Part shown: positions 2,403 to 40,799 of the stretch, in pieces
Layout of the letters: every line of letters starts with the position of its first letter
Numbering within the stretch: position 1 is the first letter of the stretch
DNA from: a virus
Taxonomy: Duplodnaviria > Heunggongvirae > Uroviricota > Caudoviricetes
DNA: 40,799 nucleotides
IMG/VR virus record: IMGVR_UViG_2698536687_000008
Span: 1-40,799 of that record
Direction: 5' to 3' (one strand)
Notes under the pieces: model-generated
The model's input: the letters and a program-made list of their open reading frames with translations, nothing else
Databases searched by the model: none
What the model was told of the DNA's origin: nothing
Made by a program: the position numbers and the translations under genes

Positions 2403-2554
2403 TCCACCTTAACCACTATCGAAGAGCACAAAGCCTTGCAATCCAGCGCAAAGCTTTGTTTGTCTCAGTTTTGTCTTATCAACCACAGCAAGTATCGATC
2501 GTTTAAGATTTGGATGATAGACTTCATGCCTTTGATTATTAGCTGATAGAATAA

Positions 2555-2917
2555 ATGTTAAAGCTATTTGCAAAGTACACCTCGATTGGTGTGCTGAACA
2601 CACTTATACACTGGGTGGTTTTTGGTGTATGTATCTATGCCGCGCATACCAATCAGGCTCTGGCAAACTTCGCAGGTTTCGTTGTGGCTGTGAGTTTTAG
2701 CTTCTTCGCGAATGCAAGATTCACATTCAAAGCATCGACTACAACGATGCGCTACATGTTATATGTCGGGTTCATGGGAACACTGAGTGCTACTGTTGGA
2801 TGGGCTGCTGATAGATGTTCACTTCCTCCAATTGTCACTCTTGTCACCTTCTCCGCCATCAGCCTGGTGTGCGGTTTCGTCTATTCAAAGTTCATTGTCT
2901 TTAGGGATGCGAAATGA
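2555..2917 (+). CDS. gtrA: Bactoprenol-linked glucose translocase (flippase) GtrA
   Basis: 120-aa four-TM protein of the GtrA family; first gene of a gtrABS operon. Confidence 0.88.
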
Positions 2918-3840
2918 AGATATCTCTTGTAGTTCCTGTCTTCAATGAAGAAGAAGCGATACCAATTTTTTATAAAACGGTACGAGAGTTCGAAGAGTTG
3001 AAGCCATATGAAGTGGAAATTGTTTTCATAAATGACGGAAGCAAAGACTCTACGGAGTCAATTATTAATGCTCTGGCTGTTTCAGATCCCCTAGTTGTTC
3101 CGCTGTCATTTACGCGCAACTTTGGTAAAGAACCAGCATTGTTTGCAGGATTAGACCATGCAACTGGGGATGCTATAATCCCAATTGATGTTGACCTGCA
3201 AGACCCGATTGAGGTTATTCCTCATCTTATTGAAAAGTGGCAGGCAGGTGCTGATATGGTGCTTGCTAAACGATCTGACCGCTCAACGGATGGTAGACTG
3301 AAGAGGAAAACCGCCGAGTGGTTCTATAAGCTGCATAACAAAATCAGCAACCCGCAGATCGAGGAAAATGTTGGAGATTTCAGGCTAATGTCTCGCGAGG
3401 TGGTAGAAAACATTAAGCTCATGCCTGAGCGCAACCTTTTCATGAAGGGTGTTTTGAGTTGGGTTGGTGGTCGCACTGATATCGTTGATTATGCCCGCGC
3501 AGAACGTGTTGCTGGCAGTACCAAGTTCAACGGATGGAAGTTGTGGAATCTTGCTCTTGAGGGAATTACGAGCTTCTCGACTTTTCCGCTACGTATGTGG
3601 ACTTACATCGGCCTTCTCGTCGCTGGCTTAGCATTTACATATGGCGCATGGATGATTCTGGACACTCTGGCGTTTGGAAACCCGGTTAGAGGTTATCCAT
3701 CCCTGCTGGTATCGATACTTTTCTTGGGCGGGATTCAGTTGATCGGTATAGGGGTACTTGGTGAATACATCGGAAGGATTTATATCGAGGTTAAACAGCG
3801 TCCAAGATATATTTTAAAGGGTAAGAATAAAAATGATTAA
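2914..3840 (+). CDS. gtrB: Bactoprenol glucosyltransferase GtrB (GT2 family)
   Basis: 308 aa with N-terminal GT2 domain (VVPVFNEEE...DGSKD...DVDLQDP) and C-terminal TM helices; start overlaps gtrA stop. Confidence 0.9.
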
Positions 3841-5287
3841 CAACTCAAAACGTTACTCGTATGTTATTTTTATATTTATATTGCCAATTATCCTAGCAAA
3901 TCAATTTTATGTTGATGATATTGGGCGAACGACTGTTGGTTATACTAAATGGGGTGTGGACGGGAGGCCTGTAGCTGATATAGTAATGTCAGTTCTCAAT
4001 CTTAGCTCCAGAATCGTCGATCTTGCACCTCTACCAATCATTCTTGCTTCTGTGCTGCTTGCAATATCTTTTGCATGTTACAGAAAGAGGTTTCTTGATG
4101 GGGGAAAATGGAGCTTTATTATACCTCTGGCATTCATGGCGAATCCAGCTATTATATCAATGTTCTCTTATCGGTTTGATGTTTTAACTTTCAGTTTCTC
4201 CATTGCATCTGCATTTGCTCTCTTTGCAATTAAGTGCAAAAGACTGGCTCATGAATTAATAATAGGCACCGCATTTGTAGTGATAGTGCTTGGCACTTAT
4301 CAGGCAGTCATTAATGTCGTTGCGATTTTATTAATATGTGAAGTAATAGTTAACATGGCCAGATTTACTGACCCGCAGTTAATACTTAAAAGGGTTGCAT
4401 TACGTATAATGCAGGTTTTAGTAGGTGGTGTGATATACGTGAAATTCATATTACCCATAACTTTTAGCGGGCATTATTCATCTAATCACCCAAGAATATC
4501 AAATGATATATTTGGTGCACTAAAGAATAACAGCTTAAAGTATTACGATTTTGCTTCTACAAATTTTTACAGGGTTATCGGTGGTGAATTATTACTCCTG
4601 TCAGCTTTAGCTTGCATTATTATGACGGCGTTTCTGAGTTACAAATACGTTAAATGTAAAGGCCTAAACTGGAAAGTATTTAACGTTATAACTGGAGCGA
4701 TACTCGCAACAGCAATCGCTATGCCAATGACTATGGGGGCATTGCTGGTTCTCGCCAACCCATTGGGAGGAGTTCACTTATACATGTCGGTTGGAGTTTT
4801 TTATGTCCTCATGAGTACATTGCTATATTATTGCTTTAAAGAACATAGATACGTAACATCAATTACATTAATACCCGTATTGTATTCTATGATTTTAATG
4901 TATGCATACGGAAATGCTTTGAAGGCTCAGGAAAGGATAAATAAAGTAGTTCTTTCTGAAATTATGCAATCCATTCGCGACGCTGGTAGTGATAATGTTA
5001 GCATTGTGTTTACCGGCACAGCACCAAGATCCGAAGCTGTAAAAAATGCAGCATTAAACTTTCCTTTGATAAACTATTCAGTCACAGATTACTTCTGGAA
5101 CTGGTATTGGGGAAGTGCGTACATGTCATTTAATGGGATAAAGAATACATACATGCCAGCAAACAAGGCTAAAAATTACATTTCTCATAAATGTGAAGGT
5201 AACCTATCCTTTCAGGGGCAATGGCTAAATTCCTATATCAAGGATAGCGTTTTGATTGTTGATTTTGATAAAAAATCCTGCCAATAA
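3833..5287 (+). CDS. Serotype-specific O-antigen glucosyltransferase (GtrS/GtrC-type polytopic membrane protein)
   Basis: 484-aa multi-TM protein directly after gtrB; strongly AT-rich coding sequence typical of horizontally acquired gtr type-specific genes. Confidence 0.75.
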
Positions 5288-13713: not shown

Positions 13714-15131
13714 TACTCAATCCTTATCTGGCAGCCAGACAGAGTGACAGGTGACTTCGTGATAACGCGCAATTTGAAACCGACATTTTTCCTGATGCGC
13801 CCTACTCGCTTCCACAAAACGCGTTTGTCGTAAACGAACGGTTCATTCTGCTCAATCATCTGCTCACGCCCGTAATTGATTCCGTCAGTGGTTGCAGAGA
13901 GAAAAAGGCGGTCGGCGTACTGCGCAACGCCAGTTGAAGATTCAACTTCAAGGTCGAAAACTCTGGCGTTATCTGCTTTGAACAACGGAGTAAACAGCAG
14001 GTGTTCCTGTTGCTTGTCGTACTGGCTGCTGATATCGAACTGCAATTTCCCGGTCACGGACTCCAGCTTATCGCCGCACGTTATCTGATTGCCTTCATAA
14101 ATGAAGTCGATAGCGCGGTACACATCGTCATACAGGCCTGTTTTCAACACACACCATTGCGGACCATTGGCGCTTGAAGATGCGTCGTACACGAGAACAT
14201 GGCGTGGAAGGTGGATAATCAGCAACTCATGAGCATCAAAGCGCAACGATTCCATCACGCCATCAGCCAGTTCATCAGCAGTGTAGGAGCGGAGGATTTT
14301 CTCAATGCTCGCGCTGGCAATTGGTGACACCTGACCAGAGCCGATGATATACACAGACGGCGCACCCGTTGCCGGATTGCTGATGAACGCATACGAATCA
14401 GCAAACGGCGTTTTGCAGTAAGTCCCGGCAATGCCTTTCTGCACCATCAGCGATGGCTGTGCGACATACAAAGCAGCACCAACGGTGGTTGCACCAGTCA
14501 GGGAGAAATATTCAATCGTTGATGAACCAAAGCATACGATGAAGTCTCGCCATGTTCCGATGCCGATGATGCCGTCAGGCTGCGATTCTGCGCGATATTG
14601 TGCGCTGTAGCGGTCAGGGTGTGTTTCGTCTTCAAGGTCAGTGATAAACCATGAATCAGTACCGTCTTTTGACCACGCATAACGCCCACGTAAGCGCGTA
14701 ATGTCACGAACCGAACCTAGCTCATACTGAGTGAATCCGCTATCTGTAGGCCAGTTTGAGACGATTTTAACCGCGCCATCATAGCGGTATTCGACCAGTT
14801 GACCATTAACGCCTACCGCCTGTGATGTCCGCCCATGCGCCATTGATACGCGACCACTTCCGGCAACATCACCGACTTCGCTTTCGCCTTTGTAGAGCTT
14901 GCCGCCACACACACGATAGACAGCATTCTGCGCCATGTTGTACTCGACGCCTCGAGATACACCGTTCACATCAGAACGTTTGGCAATGCCCGGGAATGAG
15001 CGAAGATATCCGCTGCTGTTCAGGATTTCTTTGGGTGTAGCCAACATATTCGCTGGCAGATAGTCGATATAGTCGGCGTTTCGGAAATCTTTGCCGACAC
15101 CTTTCATAAGCGGAAGTTGCTGAATCGGCAT
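13713..15131 (-). CDS. Tail accessory factor, P22 gp10-like
   Basis: 472 aa, same length as P22 gp10, syntenic between gp4 and gp26. Confidence 0.85.
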
Positions 15132-15608
15132 TATTCGCTCCCGTTATCGCAAGGATCCTTTCGGTGGAAGTAATTCCAACCGTTCCACTTCGCCAACTGG
15201 TTACCGCTACCAACAGGCATGCGGTTTGGATAACCGGACTTACATTTAGCGGCTTTTGCTCTGTCCATTGCAGACAGTTTGACGAGTCGCTCTTTCCCGT
15301 ATCTGGCAGTAGTTATAAGTTTTGCAGAAGCTTCCAGCGCATAATCTGGAGCAATGCGGCAGGCAAGGTTGAAAATGACGGCATTGATAGCGTTATTTGA
15401 TAAACCGTGCTCATCTCCCGGATCCGGAGCGACATCTGCATCAGCAAAAATGTAGCCAACGTTGATACCAGGTGACGCATCACCGCCAAGCCATTCAGCC
15501 ATCATCATTTCAAGGTCGTTGACGCCGTCTTCCATAGACTGCGGTTCGACATCGGTTAACGTGGCATTTGATGCCACACCGAGCTTACGTAATGCCGCAA
15601 GAACTAAA

Positions 15609-15631
<23 letters not shown>
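15131..15631 (-). CDS. Head completion/tail accessory protein, P22 gp4-like
   Basis: From Met at 15631: [33 protein letters not shown]... matches the P22 gp4 N-terminus; the ORF-track extension (SQSQ repeats) is upstream non-coding frame. Confidence 0.85.
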
Positions 15632-15875
<244 letters not shown>

Positions 15876-30319: not shown

Positions 30320-31755
30320 CAGAATCCTCCTTTCTTCTTGGACTGCGGTTCCTCGCGTTCACGGCGGCGCATTTCAGCAGACTGTTGGTCTGTGTCATAA
30401 ATAGCGCCATTTGCCTGAATGCAATACACCGTGCCGGTATTGCCATGACGATTGAGACGAAGGATTAGTTCAGTTTCACCAGGTGGAACACTGTCATCAA
30501 AAGCGCCTTCACGATGGATCCCGACCCAATAATCGCAATCCTGTTCAATCTGCCCTGTATCTCGTGAGTCACTTGGTAATGGGCGTTTATTGGTTCTGCT
30601 TTCCAGTGCGCGGTTAAGCTGTGTCAGAAGCACAACAACGCAATCAAGCTCTTTGGCAAGATTCTTCAGTCCTTTGGTGATCATGCCGTAAGCAAGGTCG
30701 TTGCGATCGGCCTTCTCAGCGGTCATTAGTGTCAGGTAATCGACCAGAATCATGCCAACACATCCTTTTTCTCGCTTGATTCGACGGCTTTCGCTGACGA
30801 TTTGAGCCAGAGATAATCCCGGCGTGTCGTCGATGTAAAGCAGGTCGATTTCACTCAAGCGATTGGCTGTTTCGATCGCCCTGTTGAAGTCACCATCGTA
30901 ATCACCCTGATAGCCGTCATCAGCGTCATTTGTCGCCGGAAGGTAAAAAATATTCGGGTTAACACCAGACTTCTGCCCTACCAGTTTTTCCAGTATCTGA
31001 TCACCTGGCATTTCAAGGCTGAACATCAAAGCGGGCTTTTTCTCATGCACTGCGCAATTGATTGCCATCTGGCTGTATAGCGTCGTTTTCCCCATCTTAG
31101 GGCGAGCGCCAATGACAAACAGAGAGCCTTTCACCAGACCTTTCGGTGACAGCATCCTGTCCAGCGATGGGATCCCTGTGCTCATTCCTCGTTGTTCGCC
31201 TGACGGGTCAAATCGCTTCTCAAGGTCGCTAACCCAGTCTTCCATGACCTCACCAAATGAGCGAAGGCCGCGACGCGATCCGGTTTTTGCATGGTCTGTC
31301 AGTTGCGTGAAAATCGCCTGAATAGCTTCGTACTTCTGCGTTGCAGTCATTCCGTTGCGGGAATAGAGCAATTCCGTCGCTTCAGTCATGCGGTTGATGG
31401 CGTAGCGTTCCATTGCGGTTTCACGAACCTGCATTGCATAGGCAACGATGTTTGCTGCGCTTGGCGTGTTCTTTGCGATCTCAGCGATATAAGCAAAACC
31501 GCCAACAGACGCCGTTAACGATTTACGCTCCAGTTCATCGAAAAGCGTCAGGCCATCTACTGGCTTTTGCTCCCGGTGCATTCTGGTTATTTCTTCGAAA
31601 AGGATTTTGTGTGGCCGGCTGTAAAATGAGTCAGGCTTCAGCATCGCCAGAACTTTCTGGACGCGCTCACTGCTGTCATCATCCAGAAGCAATCCACCAA
31701 TCACCGCCTGCTCTGCCTCGATGCTATGGGGCGGCGCATAAAAATTATCGGTCAT
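30319..31755 (-). CDS. Replicative DNA helicase, DnaB-like (P22 gene 12 analogue)
   Basis: From ATG 31755 (MTDNFYAPPHSIEAEQAVIGGLL...), Walker A GARPKMGKTT; N- and C-terminal DnaB domains. Confidence 0.9.
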   Translation of the reverse strand: MTDNFYAPPHSIEAEQAVIGGLLLDDDSSERVQKVLAMLKPDSFYSRPHKILFEEITRMHREQKPVDGLTLFDELERKSLTASVGGFAYIAEIAKNTPSAANIVAYAMQVRETAMERYAINRMTEATELLYSRNGMTATQKYEAIQAIFTQLTDHAKTGSRRGLRSFGEVMEDWVSDLEKRFDPSGEQRGMSTGIPSLDRMLSPKGLVKGSLFVIGARPKMGKTTLYSQMAINCAVHEKKPALMFSLEMPGDQILEKLVGQKSGVNPNIFYLPATNDADDGYQGDYDGDFNRAIETANRLSEIDLLYIDDTPGLSLAQIVSESRRIKREKGCVGMILVDYLTLMTAEKADRNDLAYGMITKGLKNLAKELDCVVVLLTQLNRALESRTNKRPLPSDSRDTGQIEQDCDYWVGIHREGAFDDSVPPGETELILRLNRHGNTGTVYCIQANGAIYDTDQQSAEMRRREREEPQSKKKGGF

Positions 31756-32635
31756 CGTGTTCACCCTCACGAACTTTCAGGTAGGTATTGTCGTTAAGCA
31801 GGAAATCAAATCCCTTTTTGTGCCAGACGGTTCCGCGTTGATGGTTTGGACGCTCTTCGAACATCCATCGGCAATTTTCGCCTACGTAGCTCAAATAATT
31901 TCTCCAGTCCTGCATCGTGAACCCATGCCCGTCAAGCTGGCGGGTTATCACTCCGGCTTTGCGCCAGAACGTTCGGATCTGGTTTTTACGCTTGTCATTC
32001 AGTGCGCGGATTCTTGGCGCTTCAGGAAGGATTTCGTGGTAAGCATCGACAACATCCTGACAGCTAACGGAAGGTTTTTTCTTGTCAGACTTTTTGTCTG
32101 CTGTGGCACTCTCTAATACGTCAGTATTAGAGATATTATTTATATTATTGTTTATGGACAACCGTTGGACAACCGTTGGACAATCTCCGCTGAGAGCCGC
32201 TCCATTACTGGTGTTTTCGTTGGACAACCGTTGGACAACCGTTGGACAATTTTTTGCCTGAAAATCGTCATATTTAACGATTGTAAACAGGCTAAATTTC
32301 TTCCCCATCGAGCAAATATTAAGCATACCTTTCGACTCAAAAGTCCGTAATAAGCTCCGAACTTTGTTGTCGGGGATGAATGTTTCTCTGACCAGCGACG
32401 GGCGTCCAGTTATCATCTGACCGCGATCAACAGTTATCGGACCGATATCCGTATTGACGACAGTAGATTCGTGATTAGCCTTGAGGATTAAGTGAAGCCA
32501 AAGATGTACTGCCTGAGAGTCCTTATAGAGCCTGCTGTCCATAAACTGGCGGTGTATAGAGACATACCCCATACTGGATGCCTCCTGATGTTGTACAGGG
32601 TTATGCCTGTAATCAGCTAACTTAACGACGCCCAT
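31745..32635 (-). CDS. Replication initiator protein (lambda O / P22 gp18-like) containing the origin
   Basis: 296 aa; internal iterons translate as repeated CPTVVQRLS; position between cII and helicase. Confidence 0.8.
   Translation of the reverse strand: MGVVKLADYRHNPVQHQEASSMGYVSIHRQFMDSRLYKDSQAVHLWLHLILKANHESTVVNTDIGPITVDRGQMITGRPSLVRETFIPDNKVRSLLRTFESKGMLNICSMGKKFSLFTIVKYDDFQAKNCPTVVQRLSNENTSNGAALSGDCPTVVQRLSINNNINNISNTDVLESATADKKSDKKKPSVSCQDVVDAYHEILPEAPRIRALNDKRKNQIRTFWRKAGVITRQLDGHGFTMQDWRNYLSYVGENCRWMFEERPNHQRGTVWHKKGFDFLLNDNTYLKVREGEHDDR
32163..32254. repeat. Origin iterons: six near-identical copies of TTGGACAACCG in two clusters, with adjacent AT-rich tract (32140-32162)
   Basis: ATGGACAACCGTTGGACAACCGTTGGACAA ... 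CGTTGGACAACCGTTGGACAACCGTTGGACAA, next to ATATTATTTATATTATTGTTTAT. Confidence 0.75.
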
Positions 32636-33505: not shown

Positions 33506-34222
33506 ATGGAAAATAAAAAATCACTGACGACAGAACAGCTGGAAGACGCTAAGCGGCTTAAGGCTTTGTATGAGTCAAAAAAGAAAGAATTGGGGATAAC
33601 CCAATACTCAATCGCTGATGAACTGGGTATCACCCAAGGAGCGGTAGGCCATTATCTTAATGGCAGAAATGCGCTAAACGTTGAGGTTGCATCTGGTTTT
33701 GCACGATTGTTGCAAGTCTCAATTGCTGATTTTAGCCAGTCAATTGCTGCCAAGGTTGCAGAACAGGCAGAAAGCCTTAAGAGCGATGCCAACGTAAGGT
33801 ATGCAGGGGAATACAGAGCAGGAAAGAGGTATCCGGTGTTAAGCAGTATCCAGGCTGGCTCGTGGTGTGAAGCATGCGAACCATACACCATTAAAGACAT
33901 AGATGTTTGGCTTGAGTCTGACGCGCATATTCAAGGTAATGCGTTTTGGCTTAAAGTGGAAGGTGATTCAATGACGGCACCGGTTGGGTTAAGCATTCCA
34001 GAGGGAACATTCGTTCTTTTCGATACCGGAAGGGAGGCGATCAACGGCAGCTTGGTCATAGCAAAACTTTCTGACTCTAACGAAGCAACATTCAAGAAGC
34101 TGATAATCGACGGCGGAAATAAATACCTCAAGGGACTTAACCCTGCATGGCCTCTCGTGCCAATCAATGGAAACTGCAAGATTATAGGCGTTGCAATTGA
34201 GACAAAACTAAGGCTGGTTTGA
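33506..34222 (+). CDS. cI: CI repressor (HTH plus S24 LexA-like autopeptidase domain)
   Basis: 238 aa; N-terminal HTH (QYSIADELGITQGAVGHYLNG) and C-terminal GDSM serine motif; divergent from cro. Confidence 0.9.
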   Translation: MENKKSLTTEQLEDAKRLKALYESKKKELGITQYSIADELGITQGAVGHYLNGRNALNVEVASGFARLLQVSIADFSQSIAAKVAEQAESLKSDANVRYAGEYRAGKRYPVLSSIQAGSWCEACEPYTIKDIDVWLESDAHIQGNAFWLKVEGDSMTAPVGLSIPEGTFVLFDTGREAINGSLVIAKLSDSNEATFKKLIIDGGNKYLKGLNPAWPLVPINGNCKIIGVAIETKLRLV

Positions 34223-35039: not shown

Positions 35040-35159
35040 ATGTTAGACATCATGACCAACCCAATTCTCGGTGGTTTAGTTACCACATTCGCCATCTGCT
35101 TCGGTTTCACTATCTGGTCTGAAGTAGATGACTGGATGTGGGAACGCAAAAACAAATAA
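35040..35159 (+). CDS. Hypothetical 39-aa single-TM peptide between nutL and N
   Basis: RBS GAGGAACAGAAA then ATG; MLDIMTNPILGGLVTTFAICFGFTIWSEVDDWMWERKNK. Confidence 0.35.
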   Translation: MLDIMTNPILGGLVTTFAICFGFTIWSEVDDWMWERKNK

Positions 35160-35199
35160 TCATCGACACACAAGGATGTGTACCTTCCCGGAGGTCAAC

Positions 35200-35499
35200 A
35201 TGACAGTAGTCATTACATATCTGGCTGACGATAACGCCAGAAATCGCCGCAGAGCACGCAGACAGGCTCAACGTGAGCAGGCAATGCAAGAGCAGCGACT
35301 GGCGCGAAAAATTGCGCTAAAGCTCTCTGGTTGCGTCAGAGCAGACAAAGCAGCATCACTAGGAAGCCTTCGCTGCAAGAAGGCAGAAGAAGTCGAGCGT
35401 AAACAGAACCGTATTTACTACAGCAAGCCACGCAGTGAAATGGGTGTGACTTGTGTTGGTCGCCAGAAAATGAAATTAGGCAGCAAACCACTTATTTGA
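35200..35499 (+). CDS. N: Antitermination protein N
   Basis: ATG 35200 after GGAGG; arginine-rich motif NARNRRRARRQAQREQ; C-terminus ERKQNRIYYSKP...CVGRQKMKLGSKPLI parallels lambda N. Confidence 0.8.
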   Translation: MTVVITYLADDNARNRRRARRQAQREQAMQEQRLARKIALKLSGCVRADKAASLGSLRCKKAEEVERKQNRIYYSKPRSEMGVTCVGRQKMKLGSKPLI

Positions 35500-39196: not shown

Positions 39197-39937
39197 ATGG
39201 CTGAACTAACCAAAGAATGGCTGAAGCAAACTATCGCTGAATACGAAGCCAATCGTGATGAATTACCGTTTGGACTGGATATCAACAGTGCCATTGAGCT
39301 TCAGGCGTTCAAGTTGGCGCTGGCATCGCTGGAAGCAGAACCAATAGGTGCATTCCACATTGCTGAACAGCAAGTTGACGGCACAAGTGACTATCTCAAG
39401 GATGGAGAATGGCCTATTGATAATGGGATTATTGAGGTTTACGCCGCTCCGCCAGTACCGGTAGTACCTGCTGCATTACCTGAGAACGACGATGAGGACG
39501 GGCATGACATTGATTATCTTGAGCCATCTGAAGTTTACGCGCTTGGGCGAACAGCTGGCTGGAACGCCTGCCGCGCCGCCATGCTTCAGGGTAAATCCGA
39601 ACAACCACAAAACGCACAACAAAATATTCCGGAAAATATTCCCGGTGGCAACTCTCCGGTAACTCCGGATGGTTGGATAAGCTGTAGTGAGCGAATGCCT
39701 GTAATTGGCGAGCTAAATTGGAGAACTAGTTTTCCTTTACTGGTTACGTGTGAGATCGGCGTTATACCTGCTTATTACGGCTTTGTGAGCGTTAATGGTG
39801 ATAGGCATTATGGCTTTATGGAGAGTCTTAAATACGGAGACGATAACGGCAACCATCCTCAAACTAATGAATATGGTCTGATTAGCAATGTCACACACTG
39901 GATGCCGCTACCAGAACCGCCGCAGGAGGTGAAGTGA
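39197..39937 (+). CDS. Ead/Ea22-like protein with C-terminal DUF551-like domain
   Basis: ATG 39197 after GGGGAGTAGGG; C-terminal GWISCSERMPVIGE...HWMPLPEPP resembles DUF551. Confidence 0.55.
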   Translation: MAELTKEWLKQTIAEYEANRDELPFGLDINSAIELQAFKLALASLEAEPIGAFHIAEQQVDGTSDYLKDGEWPIDNGIIEVYAAPPVPVVPAALPENDDEDGHDIDYLEPSEVYALGRTAGWNACRAAMLQGKSEQPQNAQQNIPENIPGGNSPVTPDGWISCSERMPVIGELNWRTSFPLLVTCEIGVIPAYYGFVSVNGDRHYGFMESLKYGDDNGNHPQTNEYGLISNVTHWMPLPEPPQEVK

Positions 39938-40215
39938 TGGACTCCTTCGCGAAATATACGATTATTGACTGGATAGCATTCCTTCAGGTTTTGCTCATCT
40001 GGTTTTATATGGCTTACAGGAGTGGACAGTGGATTGTCAGTGTAGCCTGTAGCAAGGGATGGCGTTGGTGGAACCGGAAGAATAAAAAAGCACTGGCATT
40101 GGATTCGTTTTACGAAGCATTCAATCTTAACAGCCTTCAGCCTGGTTCTGTCATTGTAGTCACCACTCAAAGCGGCATGACCATTCAGATTCATAAACCA
40201 AAAGAGGAAAAATGA
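39937..40215 (+). CDS. Hypothetical protein (92 aa)
   Basis: ATG 39937 after AGGAGG; hydrophobic N-terminal segment. Confidence 0.45.
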   Translation: MDSFAKYTIIDWIAFLQVLLIWFYMAYRSGQWIVSVACSKGWRWWNRKNKKALALDSFYEAFNLNSLQPGSVIVVTTQSGMTIQIHKPKEEK

Positions 40216-40373
40216 TGTGGCCTATATGTGTTAATTGCGGACGGATGTGCCTATCTGGATGGTGCCGAAAGTGCGACAAATGCACGAAGCAAAGACAATA
40301 ACAATCCTCGCACTCGCGGGGATTTCTTTTATCTGAACTCGCTACGGCGAGTTTTGTTTTATGGAGATGATAA

Positions 40374-40541
40374 ATGCACTTCCGAGTCACAGGTGAATGG
40401 AATGGAGAACCATTCAACAGAGTTATCGAAGCCGAGAACATCAACGACTGCTACGACCACTGGATGCTGTGGGCGCAGATAGCACATGCAGACGTAACCA
40501 ATATTCGAATTGAAGAACTGAAAGAACACCAAGCCGCCTGA
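40374..40541 (+). CDS. Hypothetical small protein (55 aa), last ORF before the terminator
   Basis: RBS GGAG 7 nt upstream of ATG; stop overlaps terminator stem. Confidence 0.35.
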   Translation: MHFRVTGEWNGEPFNRVIEAENINDCYDHWMLWAQIAHADVTNIRIEELKEHQAA

Positions 40542-40554
40542 TGGCGGTTTTTTA
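40533..40554 (+). terminator. Rho-independent terminator at the end of the pL operon
   Basis: GCCGCC-TGAT-GGCGG(T) stem-loop followed by TTTTTTATT. Confidence 0.6.
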
Positions 40555-40563
40555 TTGCCTGAT

Positions 40564-40579
40564 TTGCAGGTTCGATTCC
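40564..40579. repeat. 16-bp exact direct copy of the argW T-arm segment TTGCAGGTTCGATTCC (also at 1054-1069)
   Basis: Exact 16/16 match to tRNA positions 1054-1069; flanks on both sides are not tRNA-like; lies 19 bp upstream of torI ATG. Confidence 0.6.
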
Positions 40580-40598
40580 CTATTCGGAGATAGCACTC

Positions 40599-40799
40599 AT
40601 GCAACACGAACTACAACCTGATTCACTGGTTGATTTGAAATTCATCATGGCTGATACTGGCTTTGGTAAAACCTTCATCTACGACCGAATTAAGTCCGGC
40701 GACCTGCCTAAAGCCAAAGTTATCCACGGTCGAGCAAGATGGTTATATCGTGACCATTGTGAATTCAAAAATAAGCTCTTAAGCCGCGCTAATGGGTAA
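40599..40799 (+). CDS. torI: Excisionase / recombination directionality factor TorI
   Basis: 66 aa, MQHELQPDSLVDLKFIMADTGFGKTFIYDRIKSGDLPKAKV..., recognised as KplE1 TorI; stop codon is the last three bases of the window. Confidence 0.9.
   Translation: MQHELQPDSLVDLKFIMADTGFGKTFIYDRIKSGDLPKAKVIHGRARWLYRDHCEFKNKLLSRANG

Follow-up and report, generated by a model that had tools for sequence, protein, structure and literature searches.

A KplE1-type integrase and excisionase module in an argW prophage, with a T-loop box upstream of torI

Results

Overview of the window and its prophage

The window, i.e., the whole 40,799-nt stretch of DNA analysed here, opens with the yfdC start codon (yfdC, 1-933) and closes with the torI stop codon (40799). 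It contains a prophage of ~39.7 kb which, judged from its P22-like gene set and its cI/N early region, appears to be complete. Full-length matches were obtained for the tailspike, two ejection proteins, the head-closure, coat, scaffold and portal proteins, both terminase subunits and a Q-like antiterminator. The best phage matches constitute a mosaic of P22-like and lambdoid phages (IME10, HK620, HK140 and Sf6), with IME10 covering up to 68% of the window at ~95% identity and HK620 covering ~51% of the early region at 97%. No phage record covers at least 80% of either half of the window, and no single genome place in the complete E. coli collection covers at least 80% of its last 6.8 kb (the early region). 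The features relevant to site-specific recombination and its control are the following:

1009-1083, + strand: argW, tRNA-Arg(CCT), the integration target, left intact (ARAGORN; identical to K-12 argW by alignment)
1069-1084, + strand: attL core CTGCAGGGGACACCAT, the argW 3' end plus 1 nt (read from the sequence)
1085-1244, + strand: P' arm of attL, overlapping the intS promoter (comparison with K-12 attL)
1091-1095, 1111-1115, 1154-1158, 1164-1168 and 1174-1178, + strand: predicted TorI-site motifs GTTCG, GTCCG, GTTCG, GTTCG and GATCG, respectively
1179-1184 and 1203-1208, + strand: PintS -35 box TTGACA and -10 box TAAAAA (definitions from PMC2951348)
1200-1240, + strand: arm-type repeats GGGTAAAA / GATAAAA
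1245-2402, + strand: intS, P4-family tyrosine integrase, 385 aa (Pfam)
33506-34222, + strand: cI-type repressor gene (PHROG 4 transcriptional repressor, E = 3e-49)
35128-35499, + strand: N-like antiterminator gene at the start of the leftward (pL-type) early operon (PHROG 271, E = 7e-38)
40531-40556, + strand: intrinsic terminator, stem 40531-40550 plus T run, just 5' of the torI leader (terminator scan)
40564-40580, + strand: T-loop box (repeat search, family D16), its part conserved across the family being GTTCGATTYCC at 40570-40580, identical to the argW T-loop
40599-40799, + strand: torI, recombination directionality factor (RDF; excisionase), 66 aa (identity to PDB 1Z4H; PHROG 66)

Outside this module, gtrA (Pfam GtrA_DPMS_TM) is followed by co-oriented ORFs at 2914-3840 and 3833-5287 in the layout of K-12 yfdG-yfdH-yfdI, and the stretch 2555-5287 is a probable O-antigen glucosylation (seroconversion) cassette situated between intS and the tailspike gene. 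The minus-strand ORF 31745-32635, for which matches to HK620 and HK140 suggest a role as the replication protein O gene, contains at 32155-32261 two clusters of 11-bp direct repeats (TGGACAACCGT) that look like lambdoid origin iterons. A (TCTGGC)n hexamer run at 15679-15726 lies within the minus-strand ORF 15131-15736, a virion-assembly gene, in which it would encode a short repetitive peptide.

The left end: argW, attL and intS

The attL core is identical to the 16-nt core of KplE1 (PMC2951348) and to the annotated attP cores of HK620 and Sf6; the copy at 1069-1084 is the left one, the right-hand end of the prophage being located outside the window. [quoted passage not shown] From the core to the intS ATG there are few substitutions relative to K-12 attL, none of which falls in the TorI-site motifs, the -35 box, the -10 box or the arm repeats, and the five TorI sites, the IntS arm-type sites and the promoter overlap in attL all appear to be conserved with respect to K-12.

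The intS ATG (1245) is positioned 161 nt past argW, and the gene reads away from the tRNA on the + strand, in agreement with an earlier reading of this DNA from sequence alone (the sequence-only reading), which had placed the integrase as the first gene of the element beside argW. The integrase ORF is listed with a GTG start at 1209, ATG 1245 being the start in K-12 and in the literature. IntS is composed of Arm-DNA-bind_3, Phage_int_M and Phage_integrase domains (Pfam) and is identical to K-12 IntS at 382 of 385 positions (99%) and to HK620 Int at 98%. It has been published for the near-identical protein that IntS catalyses both integration and excision, and intS has its own promoter inside attL, which is repressed by IntS and by TorI (PMC2951348).

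The right end: torI and the boundary of the element

The ORF at the other end of the window reads from ATG to TAA through 66 codons. Its product is identical at 66 of 66 positions to chain A of PDB 1Z4H (‘Tor inhibition protein’ of E. coli K-12; E = 6.6e-43), and it matches PHROG 66, ‘excisionase and transcriptional regulator’. In tblastn searches it was 100% identical to HK620 HkaC, Sf6 gp18 and the Kapi1 excisionase, and IME10 and other phages encode the same protein. The identification of this ORF as the excisionase gene torI is thereby confirmed, as is its placement at one end of the element with the integrase by argW about 38 kb away, 38.2 kb separating the intS stop from the torI start. 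According to published work on identical or near-identical components, TorI and IHF are both required for excision and TorI binds five sites in attL.

The last codons of torI are overlapped by an ATG (40792-40799) which opens a homologue of HK620 hkaB and Sf6 gene 17. This 46-codon ORF spans the attP core in the free phage, and integration of the prophage would split the putative gene.

As the window ends exactly at the torI stop codon, with the right attachment site (attR) lying beyond it, the exact right boundary and the complete module are deduced from relatives, which also indicate that torI is the final gene of the element. In E. coli DAM and in K-12, 75 nt separate the torI stop from the core CTGCAGGGGACACCAT, beyond which lies dsdC, and an argW-type core is located 75 nt past the RDF stop in 19 genome loci of other Enterobacterales. 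Since the exact mosaic is absent from the complete E. coli collection, we infer the true downstream sequence. Dozens of IMG/VR prophage contigs likewise end at the torI stop codon (loci of length 2001), and such contigs omit ~91 nt corresponding to the P arm and the attR core. Their ending at the same base suggests gene-boundary trimming by the prophage caller, and right-side boundary calls in the argW/torI family appear to be systematically short.

Integration separates torI from intS

In the free genomes of HK620 and Sf6, one strand carries the RDF gene, 75 nt, the 16-nt attP core, ~160 nt and the int gene in succession, and the free genomes of Chronis, Midgardsormr38, Emek and phiEt88 likewise have attP flanked by the RDF gene on one side and int on the other. 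With the point of crossover located between them, the two genes end up at opposite ends of the prophage upon integration. For the present phage, the circular order would be pL operon, terminator, torI, P arm, 16-nt core, P' arm with PintS, and intS, and integration would leave intS beside argW, at attL, with torI at the opposite extremity, at attR. The proposal that torI and intS are neighbours only on the excised circle is thus borne out by the gene order of free HK620 and Sf6, and the likeness to KplE1 that had also been pointed out is real, intS being first and torI last in that element too. The split of the pair by integration was stated explicitly by Panis in 2010 and 2012, and the end-to-end arrangement of int and RDF genes has been stated for a functional phage in the Kapi1 paper (PMC8787464).

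The suggestion that the two genes are regulated independently also holds, having been published as uncoupled transcription of the RDF and integrase genes, with intS transcribed from its own promoter in attL (PMC2951348), and excision has been proposed to be controlled mainly via RDF synthesis (PMC2951348; PMC3509656). Given that intS has its own repressed promoter and that the RDF is needed for excision, excision is triggered by RDF synthesis and not by coordinated int-xis transcription.

Comparison with known systems

KplE1 (CPS-53) of K-12 shares with the window the argW target, the 16-nt core, the attL site motifs, PintS and the order with intS first and torI last, and its TorI and IntS are 100% and 99% identical, respectively, to those encoded in the window. 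KplE1 is, however, a 10.2-kb defective remnant without a repressor, whereas the prophage in the window measures ~39.7 kb and has a cI/N early region. Furthermore, the sequence 5' of torI in K-12 is a P22-type xis remnant (ypdJ) without a clean terminator; the window is free of such a remnant and instead has a phrog_676 ORF and an intrinsic terminator at this place.

The functional Lederbergvirus phages HK620, Sf6, CUS-3, Kapi1 and IME10 have a 100% identical RDF, the RDF-attP-int order and mosaic P22-like/lambdoid modules, although the window represents a different mosaic combination. For example, Sf6 carries oac, whereas gtrA and yfdG-yfdH-yfdI-like ORFs are found by intS in the window.

Phages lambda and P22 similarly possess a tyrosine integrase and a small winged-helix RDF whose gene is distal in an N-antiterminated pL operon, but in these phages attP is situated beyond int, so that xis and int are adjacent in the prophage and co-transcribed from pL, whereas in the type represented by the window attP lies between the two genes. 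Integrase and RDF transcription is also uncoupled in P2/186 (int versus cox/apl) and P4 (int versus vis), the P4 integrase being negatively regulated by itself and by its RDF (PMC2951348). The RDF families and gene positions of P2/186 and P4 differ from those seen here; Cox and Apl double as lytic-switch repressors, and P4 Vis has been proposed to act on int mRNA.

Route of torI expression

The pL-type operon extends on the + strand from the N-like gene to torI, with ral, RecT, Gam-like and ea-type genes in between. Three terminator-like hairpins are present within 250 nt at its end, two at 40303-40354 and one at 40531-40550, and the terminator scan of both strands returned five sites against 0.8 expected in shuffled sequences. 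The hairpin at 40531-40550 bears out the earlier statement that torI sits 3' of a pL terminator; HK620, Sf6 and E. coli DAM share it, and in K-12 other sequence takes its place. A consensus-match motif scan of 39900-40799 found no sigma-70-like promoter.

From this gene order, the three terminators and the absence of promoter-like sites by consensus matching, expression of torI by pL read-through after repressor inactivation is most likely. torI would occupy the distal end of an N-antiterminated leftward operon, behind three intrinsic terminators, and would be made only once the cI-type repressor is inactivated and antiterminated transcripts read through from pL. Such a cluster of terminators at the operon's distal end is in keeping with a torI gene that antiterminated transcription alone can reach. 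In the prophage state, pL transcripts would exit through attR, and in the excised circle they could run through attP into intS. The read-through route also agrees with a Rho-dependent silencing of torI, which Menouni et al. reportedly described in 2013. The torI promoter was called ‘non-characterized’ in 2010.

The HK620 record annotates a cII-dependent ‘pI’ promoter just 5' of the RDF gene, which, if real, would provide an additional route. In the alternative that this annotation raises, cII-dependent pI would drive torI, attP and intS as one transcript during establishment, in lambda-like fashion in the circle. The HK620 GenBank features, a promoter for phage integration and a ‘cII protein’ binding site, are homologous to 40554-40592 of the window, and torI and intS would indeed lie on the same strand ~250 nt apart in the circle. 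The lambda/P22 CII/C1 consensus is TTGC-N6-TTGC. The HK620-annotated repeat is TTGC-N5-TTGC, a spacing that does not fit, and the annotated site is not conserved across lineages, its second TTGC being replaced in others, which have TTGCCTGGCTTCC; no sigma-70-like site was found there either. Moreover, an RDF made together with Int would oppose integration, and PintS already supplies Int independently. Such co-transcription is accordingly considered improbable, and read-through from pL is retained as the preferred route.

Other excisionases and possible remnants of a canonical xis

The contrast with lambda and P22 drawn in the sequence-only reading, namely that xis is not adjacent to int, was upheld. 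The neighbour of intS is gtrA, no lambda/P22-type xis-int cassette was found in the prophage, and searches of Pfam, NCBIfam and PHROG gave no match for the sole other ORF beside intS (2409-2603, minus strand, 64 aa). Furthermore, tblastn of the whole window with three TorI-family RDFs, the N-terminal remnant of a P22-type Xis and lambda Xis returned torI only (40599-40796). Two observations had been named as speaking against the split layout, i.e., a second canonical xis immediately by intS and a non-functional torI; no canonical xis was found beside intS or elsewhere in the window, and TorI is identical to a protein shown experimentally to be an RDF.

These searches bear on the idea that torI is a domesticated host regulator, an inhibitor of TorR which no longer serves as RDF, with excision depending on another, unrecognised excisionase. 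The NCBI name, ‘response regulator inhibitor TorI’, and the fact that TorI does inhibit TorR (PMC3509656) are in its favour, yet KplE1 relies on this 66-aa protein as its essential RDF, HK620 and Sf6 encode it with 100% identity, the TorI binding motifs in attL appear intact, and no other excisionase-like ORF was detected by intS, among the scanned ORFs of the pL operon or by whole-window tblastn. Loss of the RDF function of torI is thus very hard to sustain, and torI is taken to be the excisionase gene of this prophage.

Of note, K-12 (ypdJ), Emek and many IMG/VR lineages encode, just 5' of the box and torI, a stretch reading ‘SLTLDEAC.FLKIS’ (L004 11095-11235, corresponding to K-12 ypdJ; L007 2101-2160; and many of the loci L144-L185). 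It aligns with positions 2-20 of PHROG 2907, an excisionase profile of 117 positions (E = 0.004 with the Emek fragment), and, as far as this resemblance goes, looks like the stump of a canonical P22-type xis gene. The presence of such a stump 5' of the box suggests that recombination near the box put the argW module (box, torI, attP and intS) in place of a conventional cassette with xis next to int.

A T-loop box upstream of the RDF gene

The sequence TTGCAGGTTCGATTCC at 40564-40579 is an exact 16-nt copy of the T-arm of argW (1054-1069), which in argW directly abuts the crossover core. The phage consequently carries the last 31 nt of argW in two parts, with ~295 nt (torI and the P arm) between them. 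The box ends 18 nt before the torI ATG, just 5' of the Shine-Dalgarno (SD) sequence GGAG (40586-40589).

That the phage ends at this repeat as its attR, torI belonging to a neighbouring KplE1-like remnant, is the least credible of the alternatives and can be dismissed: an exact 16-nt direct repeat does occur in argW (1054-1069) and 20 nt 5' of torI, near which the conserved recombination module begins and 5' of which K-12 diverges, but in the free packaged genomes of HK620, Sf6, Kapi1, IME10 and other phages the repeat is contiguous with torI, attP and int, CTGCAGGGGACACCAT is the core that has been published and used in experiments, recombination at the T-arm repeat would truncate argW, and the box is found in phages of other genera too, with non-identical flanks.

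The conservation of the box was surveyed across 181 RDF loci from phage records, GTDB (one genome per species) and IMG/VR. Among 76 unique upstream sequences, 56 had an exact GTTCGATT 15-32 nt 5' of the RDF start, and 13 of the 17 clusters of RDF proteins were represented (examples are L006 2155-2187, L007 2165-2177, L008 2170-2184 and many IMG/VR loci). Pairwise RDF identity among the surveyed lineages falls to 31%, and the four-fold degenerate sites of the RDF gene have reached saturation (major-allele frequency, 0.45-0.55). The 5' flanks of the box are unrelated between lineages, consisting of a terminator, a decaying P22-type xis remnant or other sequence. Midgardsormr38 has two tandem copies, and some lineages, L017, L162 and L167 among them, are without the box through a clean ~25 nt indel, the terminator then joining a stronger SD sequence, GGAGG. 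All relatives found use argW-type cores, including when modules at other tRNAs were sought in order to establish if the box tracks the target tRNA; matches to Pseudomonas AlpA-like proteins have a different, convergent layout. The box does not co-vary with the specificity of the RDF sites or of the Int arm sites, and its sole constant partner is the argW-type core. No description of the box was found in the searchable literature.

A number of roles for the box were considered and rejected. It is not an essential part of attR, nor is it needed for excision in vitro, since the 135-bp attR fragment used in published in vitro work begins within the final 20 nt of torI. A TorI operator is suggested by the GTTCG that it contains, yet lineages with RTTACC at the five P'-arm RDF sites (phiEt88, L163 and L170) keep GTTCGATTCCC, and an Int arm-type site is similarly contradicted by arm repeats that vary by lineage (GGGTAAAA versus GGGCAYA) next to a constant box. 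Translation as a small upstream ORF (GTT CGA TTY CCN ... CGG AGA TRR) is opposed by the lack of an in-frame start codon in many lineages; of 88 unique sequences, 77 have this frame closing 5 nt ahead of the ATG, but a T with two purines after it makes a stop codon in three of the four combinations in any event.

With regard to RNA, no convincing conserved structure emerged at the box: RNAalifold returned only a marginal anti-SD hairpin (AUUYCC/GGAGAU, -0.1 kcal/mol) unsupported by real covariation, and only some lineages have T-arm-like stems there. Rfam returned nothing near the gathering score at the box; a minus-strand match to STnc130 (24 versus 55 bits) mostly reflects terminator similarity.

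Candidate readings of the box are threefold: a protein-binding site shared with the left arm of attB, for which the integrase core-binding domain is an obvious candidate; a leader element affecting torI translation, since UUYCC can pair with the SD sequence GGAG; and a conserved linker at the module boundary. One proposal, which we regard as rather unlikely, is that the box is a functional cis element that mimics the attB left arm and serves as a binding site for the core-binding domain of the integrase or for a host factor recognising T-loops, in which case the integrase level or the state of the host would gate torI expression.

Discussion

It is very likely that the window contains a standard site-specific recombination module of the KplE1/HK620/Sf6 type on a complete-looking P22-like (Lederbergvirus-type) prophage in argW. 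[quoted passage not shown] The value which that reading attached to seeing the layout in an apparently intact phage could not be upheld, as the arrangement is documented in functional HK620, Sf6, CUS-3 and Kapi1, and the transcript mapping of torI and intS and the alignment with HK620 and Sf6 that it had proposed are in substance already published.

The window is therefore one further example of an established principle for KplE1-type modules, in which the split layout means that excision is controlled via RDF synthesis alone, the integrase being held at a low, autoregulated level. Situated after the last pL terminator and ahead of the ribosome-binding site of torI, the strongly conserved, tRNA-identical box provides a concrete, mutable handle on the switching on of torI, and mimicry of the attB arm, if true, would constitute an undescribed layer in the excision switch of argW phages.
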